DNA of 64,000 bases from an uncultured Spirochaetota bacterium. Its GTDB lineage: Bacteria; Spirochaetota; Spirochaetia; SZUA-6; Fen-1364. Positions 1 through 57,000 of the stretch are shown in pieces. Location of the stretch: contig CAWGAA010000001.1 in assembly GCA_963820525.1 (NCBI GenBank), positions 768,001-832,000 on the forward strand, given 5' to 3'. Position 1 is the stretch's first letter. The number at the start of each line of letters is the position of its first letter. The position numbers are program-made.

Positions 1-3000
1 TTAGTTTCAATGCATGGTACGTCACCTTGGCTTATTATCACCGATTACATTCTACGGCTTGGATCAAGCTCTTTCAATTGATTCGCTATATCTTTTCTGC
101 TTTCCTCAACGCCATCATACTGGATGGATATAACATGCTGTTGGAGTTGACCGCCTAGGCTACGCACCGTGACTAGTAGCTACGCGCGGTAAAACCTTTT
201 GTACTTGGATGATTCGGGGCGGCAACTCAACAGCGTCGTTACATTCAACGCTAAGAATTCTTTTATAGGAAGATTCCCTTTGTTTTTCTATTATAACTCA
301 AGATAAATGAAGACTATTCAATTTAGCTATATTGCATATTTTACCTCGTTGAATTCTTGTCTTACTTTTGCGCGGGCCATGTAAGTTCCCATTGGAACAG
401 CTCGCGCTCATTAGCTGAAAGGGCGTTATTAACCTTTCTGGAATCGTATTCTTTCGCTATTGGTTGAATTCTATCATCAATCAATCAACCTTGTATTTCG
501 TTCATGTCTTAGACTTCTCTGTTGGCCCGCGCATATTGTTTTGTTTCCGCGTAAATGTAACATTCGGTTGGAGCAGACCGCTTGGGCTACGCATCGTTAC
601 TAATTGCTACGCTTGCTAAAATAATTGTACCTAGATGATTCGGCGCGGCTGCTCAACCGTGCGTTATATTCACGCATATTGAAGATTCTTAGATAATTTC
701 AGTATTAGTTCCCTGTATACGTATGCTTGAGTATTGCTATCATAAAGGGCTTTTTTCCTATTTGAGTAATGTTGTGAGATTCACCTCTTTCATTTCTTTT
801 CTTTCCTTTGCGCGGGCCCTGGTAGTCACTAGGTCAAAGCTCGCGCCACTCTTTTGGTGGCCTCTCTTACCTTTTAACCTTGTTTTCTTTCGTTCAAGGT
901 TGAAGTCTAGATTCAACCTGTTGCGGTCAGCTTTTTTCACTCTCTTATAGTTCTCTGCATCGGCCCGCGCTAGTCTCTTATGTTTCCGCGTAAATATAAC
1001 AAGTCGTTGAAGCCGACCCCTTGACGTCCGGCTGAAAGTGTAGCAGCGGATTCGTAACAGCCGTCACGGTTGATCTGATGCGGCGGGGCGGCTTAACTCC
1101 ATGTTATATTCACGCATATTGAAGATTCTTAGATAATTTCAGTATTAGTTCCCTGTATACGTATGCTTGAGTATTGCTATCATAAAGGGCTTTTTTCCTA
1201 TTTGAGTAATGTTGTGAGATTCACCTCTTTCATTTCTTTTCTTTCCTTTGCGCGGGCCCTGGTAGTCACTAGGTCAAAGCTCGCGCCACTCTTTTGGTGG
1301 CCTCTCTTACCTTTTAACCTTGTTTTCTTTCGTTCAAGGTTGAAGTCTAGATTCAACCTGTTGCGGTCAGCTTTTTTCACTCTCTTATAGTTCTCTGCAT
1401 CGGCCCGCGCTAGTCTCTTATGTTTCCGCGTAAATATAACAAGTCGTTGCAGCTGACCGCCTAGGCTACGCGTCGTTAGAAATAACTACGCTCGTTCAAG
1501 TATTTGTTCTTTCTTGATTCGGGGCGGCAGCTGAACTCCATGTTATCTCCATCTAAATTTATATTGATTATCAATGAAGCACCAAATTATCAATTCAAGG
1601 ATATGGTATAAGACTTTTTTCAATTTCATATTTACTCATGATGGCGTTGGCATTGTTCTGGAAGGATGGCGGTGTTGTACTAGTTTGCCTGCTTGTTTTT
1701 AGGTTCAATACACTGCGCGTCACCTTGGCTTATTGTCACCGATTACATTATAGGGCTCGGATCAAGCTCTTTTAATTGATTCGATTGCTCTTTTTCTGCT
1801 TTCCTCAACGCCATCATACTGGATGGAGATAACATGTCGTTGCAGCTGACCGCCCAAGCTACGCGTCGTCACTTAGAACTACGCGCGCTCAGGTATTTCA
1901 TTTTTTTGATACGGGGCGGCAGCTGAACTCCTTGTTACATTCAACGCTAAGAATTCTTTTGTAGGAAGATTCCCTTTGTTTTTCTATTATAACTCAAGAT
2001 AAATGAAGACTATTCAATTTAGCTATATTGCATATTTTACCTCGTTGAATTCTTGTCTTACTTTTGCGCGGGCCATGTAAGTTCCCATTGGAACAGCTCG
2101 CGCTCATTAGCTGAAAGGGCGTTATTAACCTTTCTGGAATCGTATTCTTTCGCTATTGGTTGAATTCTATCATCAATCAATCAACCTTGTATTTCGTTCA
2201 TATCTTAGACTTCTCTGTTGGCCCGCGCATATTGTTTTGTTTCCGCGTAAATGTAACATTCGGTTGGAGCAGACCGCTTGGGCTACGCATCGTTACTAAT
2301 TGCTACGCTTGCTAAAATAATTGTACCTAGATGATTCGGCGCGGCTGCTCAACCGTGCGTTACATTCAACGCTAAGATATATCTTGTGGAATATTCGCTA
2401 TATTCTGCATAGAATCACTCAAGATAAAGAAGACTATACGATTTAGCTTTATATGTTACTTTGTCGAATTCTTGTTTTACTTTTGCGCGGGCCATGTAAG
2501 TTCCCATTGGAACAGCTCGCGCTCATTAGCTTAAAGGGCATTATTACCTTATAAAATCCTTTTATTTCACTATTGGTTGAATTCTATCTTCAATCAACTA
2601 ACCTTATATTTTTATCATATCGTGAAGCTTCTCTGTCGGCCCGCGCATATTGTTCTGTTTCCGCGTAAATGTAACAAGTCGTTGCAGCTGACCGCCTGGG
2701 CTACGCGTCGTTACAAATAATTACGCGTGCTGTAGTATATACACTTTTCCTGATTCGGGGCGGCAGCTGAACTCCATGTTATCTCCATCTAGATTTGTAT
2801 TGATTAGCAATGAAGCAACGTATTATTAATTCAATAATATTGGATAAGACATTTTTCAATAGATTTCTTACCCATGATAGCGTTGTCATTGCTCTGGAAG
2901 GATGGCGGTGTTGTACTAGTTTGCCTGCTTGTTTTTAGTTTCAATACACTGCACGTCACCTTGGCTTGTTGGTAACGATTACATTTTAGGGCTCGGATCA

Positions 3001-54000: not shown

Positions 54001-57000
54001 TGAATCCCTTGAATTGTAACGTTTTCGCCGCAGTTTCGGCATGATTCGAAGGTTCTTAAATAGCGTTCCTCCATGTTTCTTATCGTTCAGGATGTACTTG
54101 TAGATGGTCTCGTGACTGATTGTGAATGATCCATTCTTCTTCTGGTAAGCAGATATCTGTTCAGGGCTCCATTTCTCTTTCAAAAGAACAGTTACTTGCT
54201 GCATTTGTTCTGGGCTGAAGCGCGAACCGCGCCTTTCACGTCGCCGTCTTGCAGTTGAATAGCTTTGGGCAAGCTCAGCTCGGTACCTCAAGTCATGGTT
54301 AGTTCGGTTTCGATGAAGTTCCCTGCTGATCGTGCTAGCTGAGCGACCTAGCTCACGTGCAATGTCAGCTTTAGATCTTCGGCTTACTAAAAAAGCTGTT
54401 ATGGTGTATCTTTCTTCTCGAGAGAGTTGGTGATAGTTATTCATGTATGAATCCCCTTTCTTGGCGGAAAATGGAGGCATACAATAATATCTCAGCTCTC
54501 TCATTTTTAATCCATATCGTTGCGCTTACTATTTGAACCTGCGAAGCCTAACATGCTGTTGGAGCAGACCGCTGGGACTACGCATCGTTACTGATTCTTG
54601 CGCGTGTTAAAGCAAATGTACCTATATGATTCGGCGCGGCTGCTCAACCGCGTCGTTATATCTTCATATATTAATGTCTGATCTCGTAGAAGTAATTTTT
54701 ACTAATCCAATAATGAACAGAGGTATCATATGTTTGGTACCAATATAATGAAGACTCTACTCAAAGCTATTCTTAGTAAGGATACCCATACTGTTGAAAA
54801 GCTACTTACAAAAGCGTTATCGCGCTCAACATTCAATATTAATGATTCAGATGAATCGAAGGGACTTACTCCTTTGGTAGCGGCAGCTAGACTTAGTACT
54901 TATGAGATTTCCAAATTGTTAGTAGAAAATGGAGCAGATATTAATAAAGCTGGAAATGACGGGACTTTGCCTCTTGAATCAGCCTTTTTAAATGATAATC
55001 TTGATACTGCAAAGTTTCTATTAGAAAAAGGCGCTGATATCCATAAGACTAGAAAGGAATTCTGTCTACTCTCAACTGCTATAATGAGAAATCGAATAGA
55101 TATTCTAAAGCTCCTAACAAGAATTGGTCTTGATCCAAATGGCTCAGATACAAATTCACTTACACCGTTAATGTTATCTGCAAGAGATGGAAATATTGAA
55201 GCATTTCAAGTATTACTTGAAGCTGGAGCCGATATCCTTATTATTAGATCAGATTATGATGGAAATCAGCTAAATCTTTTAGATATTTTAGACCTTAATA
55301 TTTCAGGTACAAATGACAATGCCTTAAAGGACCGCTATTTTCAAATTAAGAAATTGATTATAAATCATTAGATCTACACTGCATTCTAACTGAACTTTAT
55401 TTATAAGAGGTCAAATTTTGAATATAAATATTGAAATCCTGAAGATATAACATGCGGTTGGAGTTGACCGCCTAGGCTACGCTCCGTGACTCATAACTAC
55501 GCGCGGTAAAGCCTATTGTACTTGGATGAATCGGGGCGGCAACTCAACAGCGTCGTTAGGCAGCCCCAAATTAGCAGAAATAGCCTTTTCCTAGCAGTGC
55601 TCTTTGTTCTTGACAGAGAATCAATTTATGGTTACATTAAGATATGTACAGAGTTCTGATGTCCAATCGAATTCTGAAGCAGATCGGGCGGATACCAGAA
55701 TACGTGCAGGTGAGTTTGGCCATCTTGATAGAACAATTACAAGAAAAAGGGCCTTTACAATACAAATGGGCAAGCTTGGCCCGAATAGGTATCACTGCCA
55801 CCTATCCCGAAACTGGGTGGCATGCTGGTACTGGCAAAAGGGAACCGTGGAGATAGAGGTTTACTATGTTGGCAGTCGTCAAAACGCCCCTTACTAATAT
55901 CAGAATTAAGGGTCGGATCTCTAACAAACTTATTGATGTTCTTATTCAAGAATATGGGAAAAGCGTCCATATTACTCATGATCCTGAAGATGAGAAGTTT
56001 GATGTATTTCAAACTGATTGGTATAAAAGAATAAAGCAGAAACTGACTCCAGGAACATATATTAAGGTCTTTCGTCAAAATAAAAATATGACTCAAGCTG
56101 ATTTAGGAAAAGCTTTAGGCGGACTTCCAAGACAGCATGTTTCAAATATGGAAAATGGTTCACGTCCTATAAGCAAAAAGATTGCACTTAAGCTTGCTAA
56201 GCTTTTCGATGTGTCCGTTGAAAAGTTCATTTCATAGAAACTATATGTGCTTTCGTGTCTGCCCAACATGCTGTTGGAGTTGACCCCTTAGCTTACGTTT
56301 GGAAAGTACAGCATACATTGCTAAACTGCCACTACCCTGCTTCGGGCGGCGGGGCAACTAAACAGCGTCGTTATCTGGCTATAAGCGGTTATATGATTTG
56401 GAATACGCGATATTCCATACTACCGACCGTGGACAAGAAAGACTTCCTCTGTCCTTCTTGCAGCCCATGAGCATTGCGGGCAAGCTGATCCTGGTTTCTC
56501 TCTTACAGGAAAAAATACGGCACGGTAGCTTTTCCTAATAGAGTCCATGCGAACAATCAGTGACAAATAGCTGCAATCGCTCAATCCCCCATAACCGCAT
56601 GGCCAGTCATCATCCCACAATCCTTTGGTATCGAGACGCTTCGTTCATGCTCCCCGACAATGCAGCACGTTTCGGATCCATTAGCCTCAGTGCATGGAGA
56701 ACCCAGTGTCGTACTGCTAGCTCTGAGACTTGCATGGCGTACCGTATTGGCATAACATTCAGAGCAGAACAATATATTAAAGGATAGTAAATGAATTATA
56801 ATCCAAATGTGTCACCTAATTTCGCTCTTTGGCTGGAACTTGATGAAGCAGAGCGCATAACGACTGTAATTGCGTATCACGAACGCAACAGAGAAAAACT
56901 TCCCAATCAAAGGCTGCATGCCACCATCCACGTAATAATAGAGAACCAGCTAGCCGAGCAGATCCCGGCGGTCACTGACGCGCTGACAAGGCTAAACCAC

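Follow-up and report, generated by a model that had tools for sequence, protein, structure and literature searches.

An IS30-family insertion sequence found beside integron attC sites in a single orientation, with relatives placed by the same rule in many phyla

Integrons are among the principal means by which bacteria acquire and trade accessory genes. A full-text literature search for elements that target attC sites found only two kinds, the IS1111-attC group and the group IIC-attC introns. The IS1111-attC group (ISPa21, ISPst6 and ISKpn4, of the IS1111/IS110 family) is presented in parts of PMC3001079 and PMC11187229 as an attC-specific, monophyletic subgroup whose members lie near the 5' end of attC and antisense to the cassettes, though they insert inside attC and use a DEDD transposase guided by a seekRNA (a section of PMC11187229). 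Group IIC-attC introns, as outlined in part of PMC3001079, likewise form a monophyletic lineage and occupy the bottom strand between the cassette gene and attC, antisense to the cassettes. They differ in being retroelements, built of a ribozyme plus a reverse transcriptase, whose point of entry is single-stranded DNA following a stem-loop; they do not cut and join as DNA transposons do. A looser parallel comes from insertion sequences of REP and other extragenic palindromes, which also enter a repeated, palindromic, non-coding target in one orientation with an N-terminal HTH as the proposed reader; an N-terminal H-HTH motif is given there as required for target binding (passages of PMC1525189). 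These elements, however, belong to the IS3 and IS110 families and use another palindrome, one not moved by a recombination system.

Members of the IS30 family are about 1.0 to 1.25 kb long, with inverted repeats of 20 to 30 bp, a target duplication of 2 to 3 bp and a catalytic triad whose second D and E are separated by about 33 residues. Their ends follow the pattern TTCAA...AAGnGCAA, they produce short duplications and they show a marked target preference. IS30 itself moves through a circle or dimer intermediate into near-palindromic hot spots or into its own inverted repeats by cuts 2 bp apart (from part of PMC9333248).

The window, by which we mean the whole stretch of 64,000 nucleotides analysed here from an uncultured Spirochaetota bacterium, holds the distal part of a 141-kb integron cassette array. 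The whole array has 171 or more attC 5' arms, every one of them on the plus strand, and an intact integron integrase gene adjoins it (Table 1). The array also seems to contain one element of the IS1111-attC type. Searching the whole genome for the end motifs of an IS30-family element revealed nine copies, every one 1086 bp long and all on contig C1, with the transposase ORF on the minus strand, and so antisense to the cassettes, in all nine. Eight copies are identical and the one at C1:762077 differs at two positions. Each copy contains one ORF between imperfect 28-bp inverted repeats (17 of 28 positions matching, as read from the sequence). Within the window each end motif has eight matches, all on the plus strand, against a chance expectation of 0 to 0.07; across the genome the left-end motif has nine, all on C1, and the right-end 11-mer ten, nine of them paired with a left end and one a lone chance match at C1:366693, with neither motif on C2 to C4. 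The end search and the ORF strand bear out the preliminary description, which had reported nine copies of 1086 bp, all in the array and in one orientation; its nine left ends and its absence of ends from C2 to C4 also stand, whereas its nine right ends become ten with the unpaired match. One public assembly contains a 1086-bp contig that corresponds exactly to copy 3, and among assembled public contigs, which are uninformative on a circle, we saw no circle junction, new insertion or empty-site allele. The element is best explained as one that is active or was so very recently.

Table 1. Coordinates of the array, the insertion sequence copies and associated features (window position 1 is contig position 768,001).
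Feature	Window position	Contig position	Strand	Details
Distal integron cassette array	1..56400		+	part of whole array at contig 683767-824264
intI		682089-683324	-	outside window; TIGR02249 integron integrase, 410 bits
IS copy 1		762077-763162	-	upstream of window
IS copy 2	5466..6551	773466-774551	-	IRR 5466-5493, IRL 6524-6551; duplication AAA at 5463-5465 and 6552-6554
Transposase gene (copy 2)	5496..6452		-	start at Met of MNNYHQL as in homologues, 318 aa
attC adjoining copy 2	6554..6668		+	R'' ATATAAC 6554-6560, R' GTTATAT 6662-6668; intact
IS copy 3	12998..14083	780998-782083	-	duplication CCG
IS copy 4	22630..23715		-	duplication CAA
IS copy 5	26284..27369		-	duplication CCA
IS copy 6	29885..30970		-	duplication AGA
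IS copy 7	40904..41989		-	duplication GGG
IS copy 8	50156..51241		-	flanks GGA and GAG, without perfect duplication
IS copy 9	53458..54543		-	flanks GAG and AAG, without perfect duplication

Evaluating the junctions, we found the same arrangement in nine of nine copies, as had been claimed, with the element followed by 5 nt and then the TAAC of an attC site (TAACATGC in eight, TAACAAGT in one). The downstream attC is complete in every case, its R' GTTA box falling some 110 nt beyond as judged by eye, and at copy 2 the first base of R'' is also the last base of the AAA duplication. Upstream flanks differ among all nine copies, that of copy 8 (its left flank) being a member of an amplified cassette family of about 392 bp. 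The 3-bp target duplication is perfect in seven of the nine (CTG, AAA, CCG, CAA, CCA, AGA, GGG), in line with the preliminary description; its statement that the other two match at 2 of 3 positions holds for GAG/AAG and fails for GGA/GAG, which matches at only one. Unoccupied paralogous cassettes confirm the borders of the element: four in the same array show exactly how the site of the copy at 773466 (duplication AAA) read before insertion, and one at contig 692207 does so for the copy at 780998 (duplication CCG). By simple arithmetic, the roughly 171 available slots stand among some 10 million combinations of position and orientation, and nine of nine copies occupy such slots, which excludes chance as the cause of the placement.

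Across the array the element prefers 5' arms of exact consensus sequence, with insertions at 7 of 47 such arms as against 2 among the 124 that deviate from it (Fisher p = 0.002), a contrast confounded with cassette family. Two amplified families make up about 105-107 of the 171 cassettes and carry 2 insertions in 107, as against 7 in 64 for the others. The attC placement rule was not seen among the other insertion sequence families of this array. Of the eight IS1380 copies in the genome at 85% identity or more, four lie outside the array, just as had been noted for contrast; the four within it include both orientations.

The transposase places the element firmly in the IS30 family. It scores 294.3 bits against the IS30 model NF033563 (cut-off 80), while models of other families score far below their cut-offs and no IS110 model gives a match, and its Pfam domains (HTH_38 at 24-66, HTH_32 at 85-137 and rve at 189-280) agree with the earlier domain assignment. 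The catalytic residues D197, D253 and E287 are conserved without exception in all 71 proteins of the alignment and stand at D(55)D(33)E spacing; element length, single ORF, repeats and duplication fit the family as well. The longest reading of the ORF extends to 6512 and would encode 338 aa. The element shares its model, HTH-HTH-DDE layout, D(33)E spacing and inverted-repeat end pattern with IS30, IS1655, ISApl1, IS18 and IS1394, whose transposases are 30 to 43% identical to the one here. Membership in the IS1111-attC group was considered and rejected, since the transposase is of the IS30 DDE type and not the DEDD IS110/IS1111 type; moreover, the element has classical inverted repeats and a 3-bp duplication, and it stops 2 nt outside TAAC, leaving attC whole.

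Extending the comparison beyond this genome, the junction of IRL, 3-bp duplication, 2 nt and TAAC recurs among relatives in many phyla whose protein identity is 50 to 78%, which supports the original proposal of an IS30 element directed in one orientation to the 5' border of attC. Among 57 unique sites on genome contigs, TAAC lies exactly 5 nt from IRL in 36 and AAC in 42, whereas the neighbouring offsets of 3, 4, 6 and 7 nt gave 0, 0, 1 and 0 sites; of the 61 unique sites on metagenome contigs, 47 have TAAC and 51 have AAC at the 5-nt offset. At the mirrored end TAAC was found in none of 57 sites in either set. That leaves 21 of 57 genome and 14 of 61 metagenome sites lacking TAAC at the expected offset, several of them in ordinary, probably coding, sequence; targeting is therefore strong without being absolute, unless some of the ends or assemblies are in error. 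Perfect 3-bp duplications occur at 28 of 57 genome and 17 of 57 metagenome sites, a low rate that probably reflects recombination among copies together with chimeric assembly. Many co-oriented copies would promote deletions by homologous recombination, which would explain why matching duplications are often lost.

The vibrios offer a further view of the rule. ISVa6 and ISVvu6 (ISfinder names in NCBI annotation) belong to the same clade at 52 to 54% protein identity, and of 11 full ISVa6-like copies on chromosome 2 of Vibrio campbellii eight lie at the TAAC of a Vibrio-type attC, two at an attC with a mutated box and one elsewhere. A copy on a V. alginolyticus plasmid conforms to the rule as well, whereas the ISVa6 copy on plasmid pJM1 is not at attC and seems truncated at its left end. 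Vibrio target flanks match the attC consensus of V. anguillarum published in PMC4572688, and the portion of that paper presenting ISVa6 as one of four new insertion sequences of strain NB10 gives no target rule. In a tree built by quick search, and with long outgroup branches, all 65 ingroup rows split from six outgroups (IS18, IS30, IS1394, ISPa59, ISApl1 and an Acinetobacter towneri element) with an SH-aLRT of 99, and no attC was found at the sampled copies of those six. The tree thus supports a single IS30-family lineage of attC-associated elements spanning phyla. Its clade-specific residues fall mostly in the catalytic core and not in the helix-turn-helix region, a point that counts against the main explanation given below. 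Because the literature search found no such rule, we infer that attC-specific IS30/DDE elements are a new third kind of attC-seeking element.

To judge whether the targets are true attC sites and which arm is contacted, we compared their folds and flanking ORFs. A terminally closed hairpin of 55-130 nt is present at 29 of 36 TAAC sites, and at 35 of 39 sites the insertion point marks the end of a cassette-strand ORF of 60 aa or more. In the 23 hairpins closed by TAAC...GTT, single-base bulges number 38 on the arm facing the element and 7 on the far arm, the extrahelical-base pattern of the R''-L'' arm, which indicates true attC sites; together with the ORF direction, the bulges identify the contacted arm as R''-L'' and not R'. 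The two arms also differ in sequence, R'' arms reading AAC-A-A at positions 9 and 10 (15 and 16 of 23) and R' arms AAC-G-T (15 and 13 of 23) with the L-box register shifted by one, so that a protein reading duplex DNA could tell them apart. All conserved target positions are nonetheless conserved features of attC itself, which leaves the logo silent on what the transposase reads.

We are rather confident of the overall explanation, a phylum-spanning IS30 clade whose DDE transposase appears to select the R'' border of attC. The staggered cut would cover 3 bp, the last of them being the opening base of the R'' box (RYYYAAC). IRL always points toward attC, so that the transposase gene runs antisense to the cassettes. 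Duplication of that opening base preserves both R'' and the whole attC, and the element consequently sits between the cassette ORF and attC as cargo of that cassette. As for how the site is chosen, the most likely mechanism, and one we hold to be moderately probable, is that the element excises in IS30 fashion as a circle with joined ends and that the transposase then picks a preferred hot spot, read as duplex DNA. This asymmetric hot spot would comprise the R'' box, the adjacent spacer and the L'' arm (consensus G-nnG-CCTAACAA...T..AG..GAC), and such a choice of target would account for the fixed position as well as the single orientation. Silent cassette arrays may offer a low-cost landing site, and the element could then move with cassettes that IntI excises and inserts.

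The strongest competitor, which we consider possible although unlikely, is that the transposase recognises a folded attC, like IntI and probably the group IIC-attC introns; the fold would be a single-stranded hairpin or an extruded cruciform in which the spacer is unpaired and some bases are extrahelical. Insertion takes place exactly at the foot of the R''/R' stem, attC sites as different in sequence as those of spirochaetes, betaproteobacteria and vibrios are used, and the target bears no likeness to the element's own ends. An off-target site (L026) at the foot of a terminator-like hairpin fits structure better than sequence, and both known attC-seeking elements also lie at the 5' end and antisense (in part of PMC3001079). 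Transposases of the IS30 type, however, integrate into duplex DNA (PMC9333248, in part), and a reader of the stem base by structure alone should also use the R' side, which was never seen, while the sequence differences between the arms suffice to separate R'' from R'. Within this array, moreover, all sites share one fold and yet arms of exact consensus are favoured, and several TAAC sites have only a weak or distant R' partner.

Delivery of the transposase to attC by a bound protein, either IntI or a host factor, is very improbable. An intact integrase gene does stand at the array, and tethering is known from other transposons such as the Tn7 proteins (part of PMC3971601). Yet spacing is kept to the nucleotide across hosts of several phyla with differing integrases, the V. 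alginolyticus plasmid copy is at attC and many contigs appear, as an uncounted impression, to lack a nearby integrase, and the 318-aa protein consists of HTH and catalytic parts with no partner domain visible. Least credible, to the point that we dismiss it, is that there is no targeting, with one IS-bearing cassette duplicated or shuffled by IntI or random insertions surviving only in a dispensable array: the array is indeed rich in duplicated cassettes and collects other insertion sequences, but the differing flanks, which the preliminary description had already set against cassette duplication, the seven different perfect duplications, the empty-site paralogues and the recurrence in unrelated genomes all oppose it, the borders of the element are its inverted repeats, 5 nt short of R'', and not the cassette crossover point in R', and a survival filter cannot yield one nucleotide position and one orientation, neither of which IS1380 shows in the same array.

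A more far-reaching version, which we put forward as speculative and rather doubtful, is that an ancient multi-phylum DDE clade tells R''-L'' from the near-identical R'-L', perhaps in the manner of IntI through the folded site with its spacer and extrahelical bases, inserts in a way that keeps attC functional, and rides IntI-moved cassettes between integrons. If so, this would be a transposon that uses the cargo unit of another recombination system as its vehicle, and a ready-made system, consisting of protein alone, for inserting DNA in a set orientation at a short, defined site.

For integron biology, only two kinds of attC-homing element have been described, and the third would be an ordinary DDE transposase working without a guide RNA, so that unrelated mobile elements appear to have converged on the 5' border of attC as a safe harbour. 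Since attC stays intact, the element may hitch-hike inside cassettes, and attC-homing copies may explain deletions and rearrangements in very large chromosomal arrays, including the superintegrons of Vibrio. For annotation, IS30-family genes recorded as lying in cassettes are insertions and not cassette genes. The clade would further provide a one-protein model for position- and orientation-specific DDE integration and, possibly, an insertion tool.

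A search of the whole genome with both end motifs returned nine paired ends of the IS30-family element, all on contig C1 between 762077 and 822543 as the preliminary description had reported, together with one further, unpaired match to the right-end 11-mer that arose by chance. Within the window each end motif matched eight times, always on the + strand, where shuffled sequences gave 0 to 0.07 matches. Every copy is 1086 bp long, eight being identical and the remaining one carrying two differing positions, and every copy holds one ORF on the minus strand whose product scores 294 bits against the curated IS30 model (cut-off 80), with the domains HTH_38, HTH_32 and rve. 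The terminal inverted repeats, read off the sequence and aligned from the tips, are 28 bp long and imperfect (17/28 positions matching), which sets the borders of the element at C...G and so bears out those originally proposed. TAAC follows 5 nt beyond the element in every copy (TAACATGC in eight, TAACAAGT in one). The first three of these 5 nt repeat the three bases preceding the element perfectly in 7/9 copies, the number first given, and the other two match at one and two positions rather than at two each as had been stated. The flanks of these two copies are GGA/GAG and GAG/AAG, such that the right flank of one is the left flank of the other (chance 1 in 64), and this shared GAG may have been left by recombination between copies or may be a coincidence. 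In a public assembly the IS forms a separate 1086-bp contig at ~5x the depth of its flanks, which bears neither way on present activity, and public assembly contigs contained no IS-skipping joint, circle junction or empty-site allele, a result equally neutral on present activity.

A complete integron supplies the repeats downstream of the elements, which are its attC sites; its integrase gene is intact, divergent from the cassettes and scores 410 bits against TIGR02249. Fuzzy matching of the R''-L'' arm seen locally recovered at least 171 attC sites between 683767 and 824264, every one on the + strand, in an array of ~141 kb; the integron is thus very large, and the window covers its distal part. 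Because many of its cassettes are duplicated, the array itself provides empty sites for comparison. Four unoccupied paralogues of the cassette at 773466 read ...GCGTAAATATAAC, the occupied version reads ...GCGTAAA[IS]AAATATAAC, and one unoccupied paralogue shows the equivalent empty site for the copy at 780998. This proves both the borders and the 3-bp duplication, and shows attC to be the target and not part of the element. The attC site is complete downstream of all nine copies, and since the last base of the duplication is also the first of the 7-bp R'' box, insertion regenerates that box. The nine copies occupy ranks 108 to 168 and all stand among the 64 most distal of the 171 attC sites, far from the integrase. 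This distal clustering has a post-hoc p of ~1e-4 if sites are equally likely; local hopping is one possible explanation, and the age of the amplified cassettes in the proximal part or selection close to the promoter are others. Short-cassette families of ~392 bp (65 copies) and ~423 bp (40 copies) hold 105/171 cassettes; they are AT-rich, their longest ORF is only ~45 to 62 aa, and an Rfam scan of the whole window gave zero family matches.

Related elements follow the same placement elsewhere. In a genome of the same family, elements 68 to 71% identical in DNA adjoin attC in like manner; a relative from this family is labelled Spirochaetota MAG. Scanning one genome per species yielded 78 loci at 49 to 75% protein identity, hosted by Spirochaetota, Rhodocyclales, Burkholderiales, other Gammaproteobacteria, Gemmatimonadota, Acidobacteriota, Verrucomicrobiota and others. 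The element tips were located from a motif common to the ends of these loci, TTCAA-N5-AAGnGCAA, at a fixed 6-nt offset from it, with single 1-nt errors possible. Removal of 10 loci with no recognisable end pair, two duplicates and loci with a flank of <70 nt at the IRL side or <40 nt at the IRR side left 57 unique sites on genome contigs, among which TAAC stands exactly 5 nt from IRL in 36 and AAC in 42. TAAC at offsets 3, 4, 6 and 7 from IRL was found at 0, 0, 1 and 0 of these sites and at the mirrored position by IRR at 0/57, and the 3-bp duplication is perfect in 28/57. An independent metagenome sample, reduced from 80 loci to 61 (14 without an end pair, 2 with short flanks, 3 duplicates), gave TAAC at 47/61, AAC at 51/61, one site with TAAC at +6, and mirrored-end TAAC at 0/57. 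Perfect duplications numbered 17/57 in this sample, a low rate that is expected if multi-copy elements give chimeric joins.

As attC is nearly palindromic, an element reversed at the R' end would look alike from the element's side. A terminally closed hairpin of 55 to 130 nt is present in 29/36 TAAC sites, and 23 of these hairpins are closed TAAC...GTT with an internal loop after the R boxes and then single-base bulges, the classic attC layout. Such bulges number 38 in the IS-side arm and 7 in the far arm, which marks the IS-side arm as R''-L'', the arm that bears the extrahelical bases. A cassette-strand ORF of at least 60 aa ends at the insertion point in 35/39 sites, its stop codon being the TAA of TAAC itself in 13 of those 35; 21/39 sites also have an opposite-strand ORF of at least 60 aa, and bulge asymmetry was given more weight than this ORF-direction test, which is noisy in high-GC DNA. 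Hairpins, bulge asymmetry and ORF direction together place the IS between the cassette gene and its attC, antisense, at the R'' end.

Named elements from Vibrio belong to the same lineage. The best plasmid-database matches were annotated 'IS30-like element ISVa6 family' (52%), and one record, a 2.06-Mb Vibrio campbellii chromosome, holds 11 full copies of a 1091-bp ISVa6-like element, with eight at TAAC of a Vibrio-type attC at the same offset, two at attC with a mutated box and one elsewhere with a clean duplication. A copy carried by a plasmid of V. alginolyticus obeys the same TAAC rule. The Vibrio flanks agree with the attC consensus published for V. anguillarum, and the passages of that paper that name ISVa6 for this species give no target rule (PMC4572688). 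In a quick maximum-likelihood tree of 71 transposases, the 65 ingroup rows, made up of this element, two Vibrio elements and the loci on genome contigs, form a single clade (SH-aLRT 99). The six outgroup elements, namely IS18, one from Acinetobacter towneri, IS30, IS1394, ISPa59 and ISApl1, fall outside it, and none of them, inspected at one copy each, lies at attC. Two of them stand directly behind resistance genes and were rejected as followers of the clade's rule: ISPa59 on the Pseudomonas putida plasmid NZ_KU130294.1 follows a truncated aadA1 attC within the 3' conserved segment of a class 1 integron, off the clade's attC position, and IS1394 on the Salmonella plasmid CP049307.1 lies behind grdA with no attC. 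The 15 sites without AAC are spread through the clade and form no sublineage of their own, and near-identical elements of a single genome occur at TAAC and at variant boxes alike, so that the elements there seem to have missed their target, or their sites to have degraded, rather than to follow a different specificity.

The integron array acts as a sink for insertion sequences, and transposase genes of the IS1595, IS1634, IS1380 (three copies, both orientations), ISNCY/IS5-like and IS1182 types are also present in its distal part and border. The contrast drawn in the preliminary description with IS1380 stands, as the array contains only four of its eight copies and both orientations occur. An IS110-family element breaks attC inside the L'' arm, with TAACATGCTGTTGGAG on one side and GTTGACGCC on the other, and has the appearance of an IS1111-attC element, a kind already known; just beyond the array lies a relative with 61% identity.

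Coordinates of the integron and of insertion sequences in its distal part and border
Feature	Coordinates	Strand	Remark
Integron	C1:682089-824264		distal part, window 1-56400
Integron integrase gene	C1:682089-683324		
Amplified short cassette	window 131-558		example
Amplified short cassette	contig 684872-685266		example
IS30 copy, flanks GGA/GAG	window 50156-51241		no matching duplication
IS30 copy, flanks GAG/AAG	window 53458-54543		no matching duplication
IS110-family element	window 17776-19514	minus	transposase ORF 17788-19194; antisense to cassettes
Relative of IS110-family element	window 62183-63460		
Transposase gene	window 20075-21022		
Transposase gene	window 32804-34519		
Transposase gene	window 34996-36459		
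Transposase gene	window 37210-38673		
Transposase gene	window 46237-47628		
Transposase gene	window 57671-58789		
Transposase gene	window 58790-60253		

For the IS30-family element, a fixed position, a single orientation, a 3-bp stagger and an attC left intact after insertion are shown. IS30 itself is described, in the relevant passages, as excising as a circle or dimer with joined ends that goes to preferred hot spots or beside its own ends (PMC9333248), and a passage citing Nagy et al. 2004 gives the N-terminal H-HTH motif as required for target binding (PMC1525189). Mimicry of the element's own ends was rejected as the basis of targeting, the IRL and IRR profiles fitting the target in both orientations no better than column shuffles (p ~0.13 to 0.84), and a target unlike the ends is of the hot-spot kind. 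Its logo reads G-nnG-CCTAACAA...T..AG..GAC. The two attC arms have the R box in common, but it is directly followed by AA in R'' and by GT in R', and the L-box register also differs, so that a reader of duplex DNA could distinguish the arms without folding. Exact-consensus arms in this array are occupied in 7/47 cases versus 2/124 for others (p = 0.002), a comparison confounded with the two amplified cassette families. Given these arm differences and this occupancy, we lean, if only modestly, towards a transposase that would read the sequence of the duplex R''-L'' arm. Recognition of the folded attC, our second choice, seems to us rather unlikely. One insertion, at the base of a hairpin that resembles a terminator, argues for a structural component. 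The clade member concerned, on a Ramlibacter MAG contig, stands at the foot of this GC-rich hairpin, which is followed by a T-run, and has a clean 3-bp duplication and TAAAA in place of TAAC. Tethering by IntI, our third choice, we regard as highly improbable. Most clade-specific residues surround the catalytic D253 and E287 rather than falling in the HTH region, which is a lead, not evidence.

Antisense placement between cassette gene and attC is shared with group IIC-attC introns and IS1111-attC elements, as both are described in the corresponding passages of PMC3001079. These were the only attC-targeting elements that full-text searches and passages of selected papers yielded, so that an earlier remark is possible, and the same searches and passages gave no link of IS30, ISVa6 or ISVvu6 to attC; a 2025 integron paper, where it touches on attC targeting, cites the IS1111 work alone (PMC12444791). 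The novelty lies in the family of the enzyme, the precise site, an attC left whole and the breadth of the clade, with attC-specific mobile elements and site-preferring IS30 elements known already.

Insertion would also have consequences for the cassettes. The IRR tip is CCTGA here and nnTAG or nnTGA in most relatives, and for a reading frame that ends at the R'' TAA it would give a new stop after one altered codon; the motif is common to IS30 itself and so appears inherited rather than adapted. Many identical, co-oriented copies should drive deletions, which would account for the mismatched duplications (2/9 here, 6/10 of the attC-adjacent V. campbellii copies read and about half of the other relatives). 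By its position the element would be incorporated into the cassette upstream, and IntI could then move the two together by excision and re-insertion.
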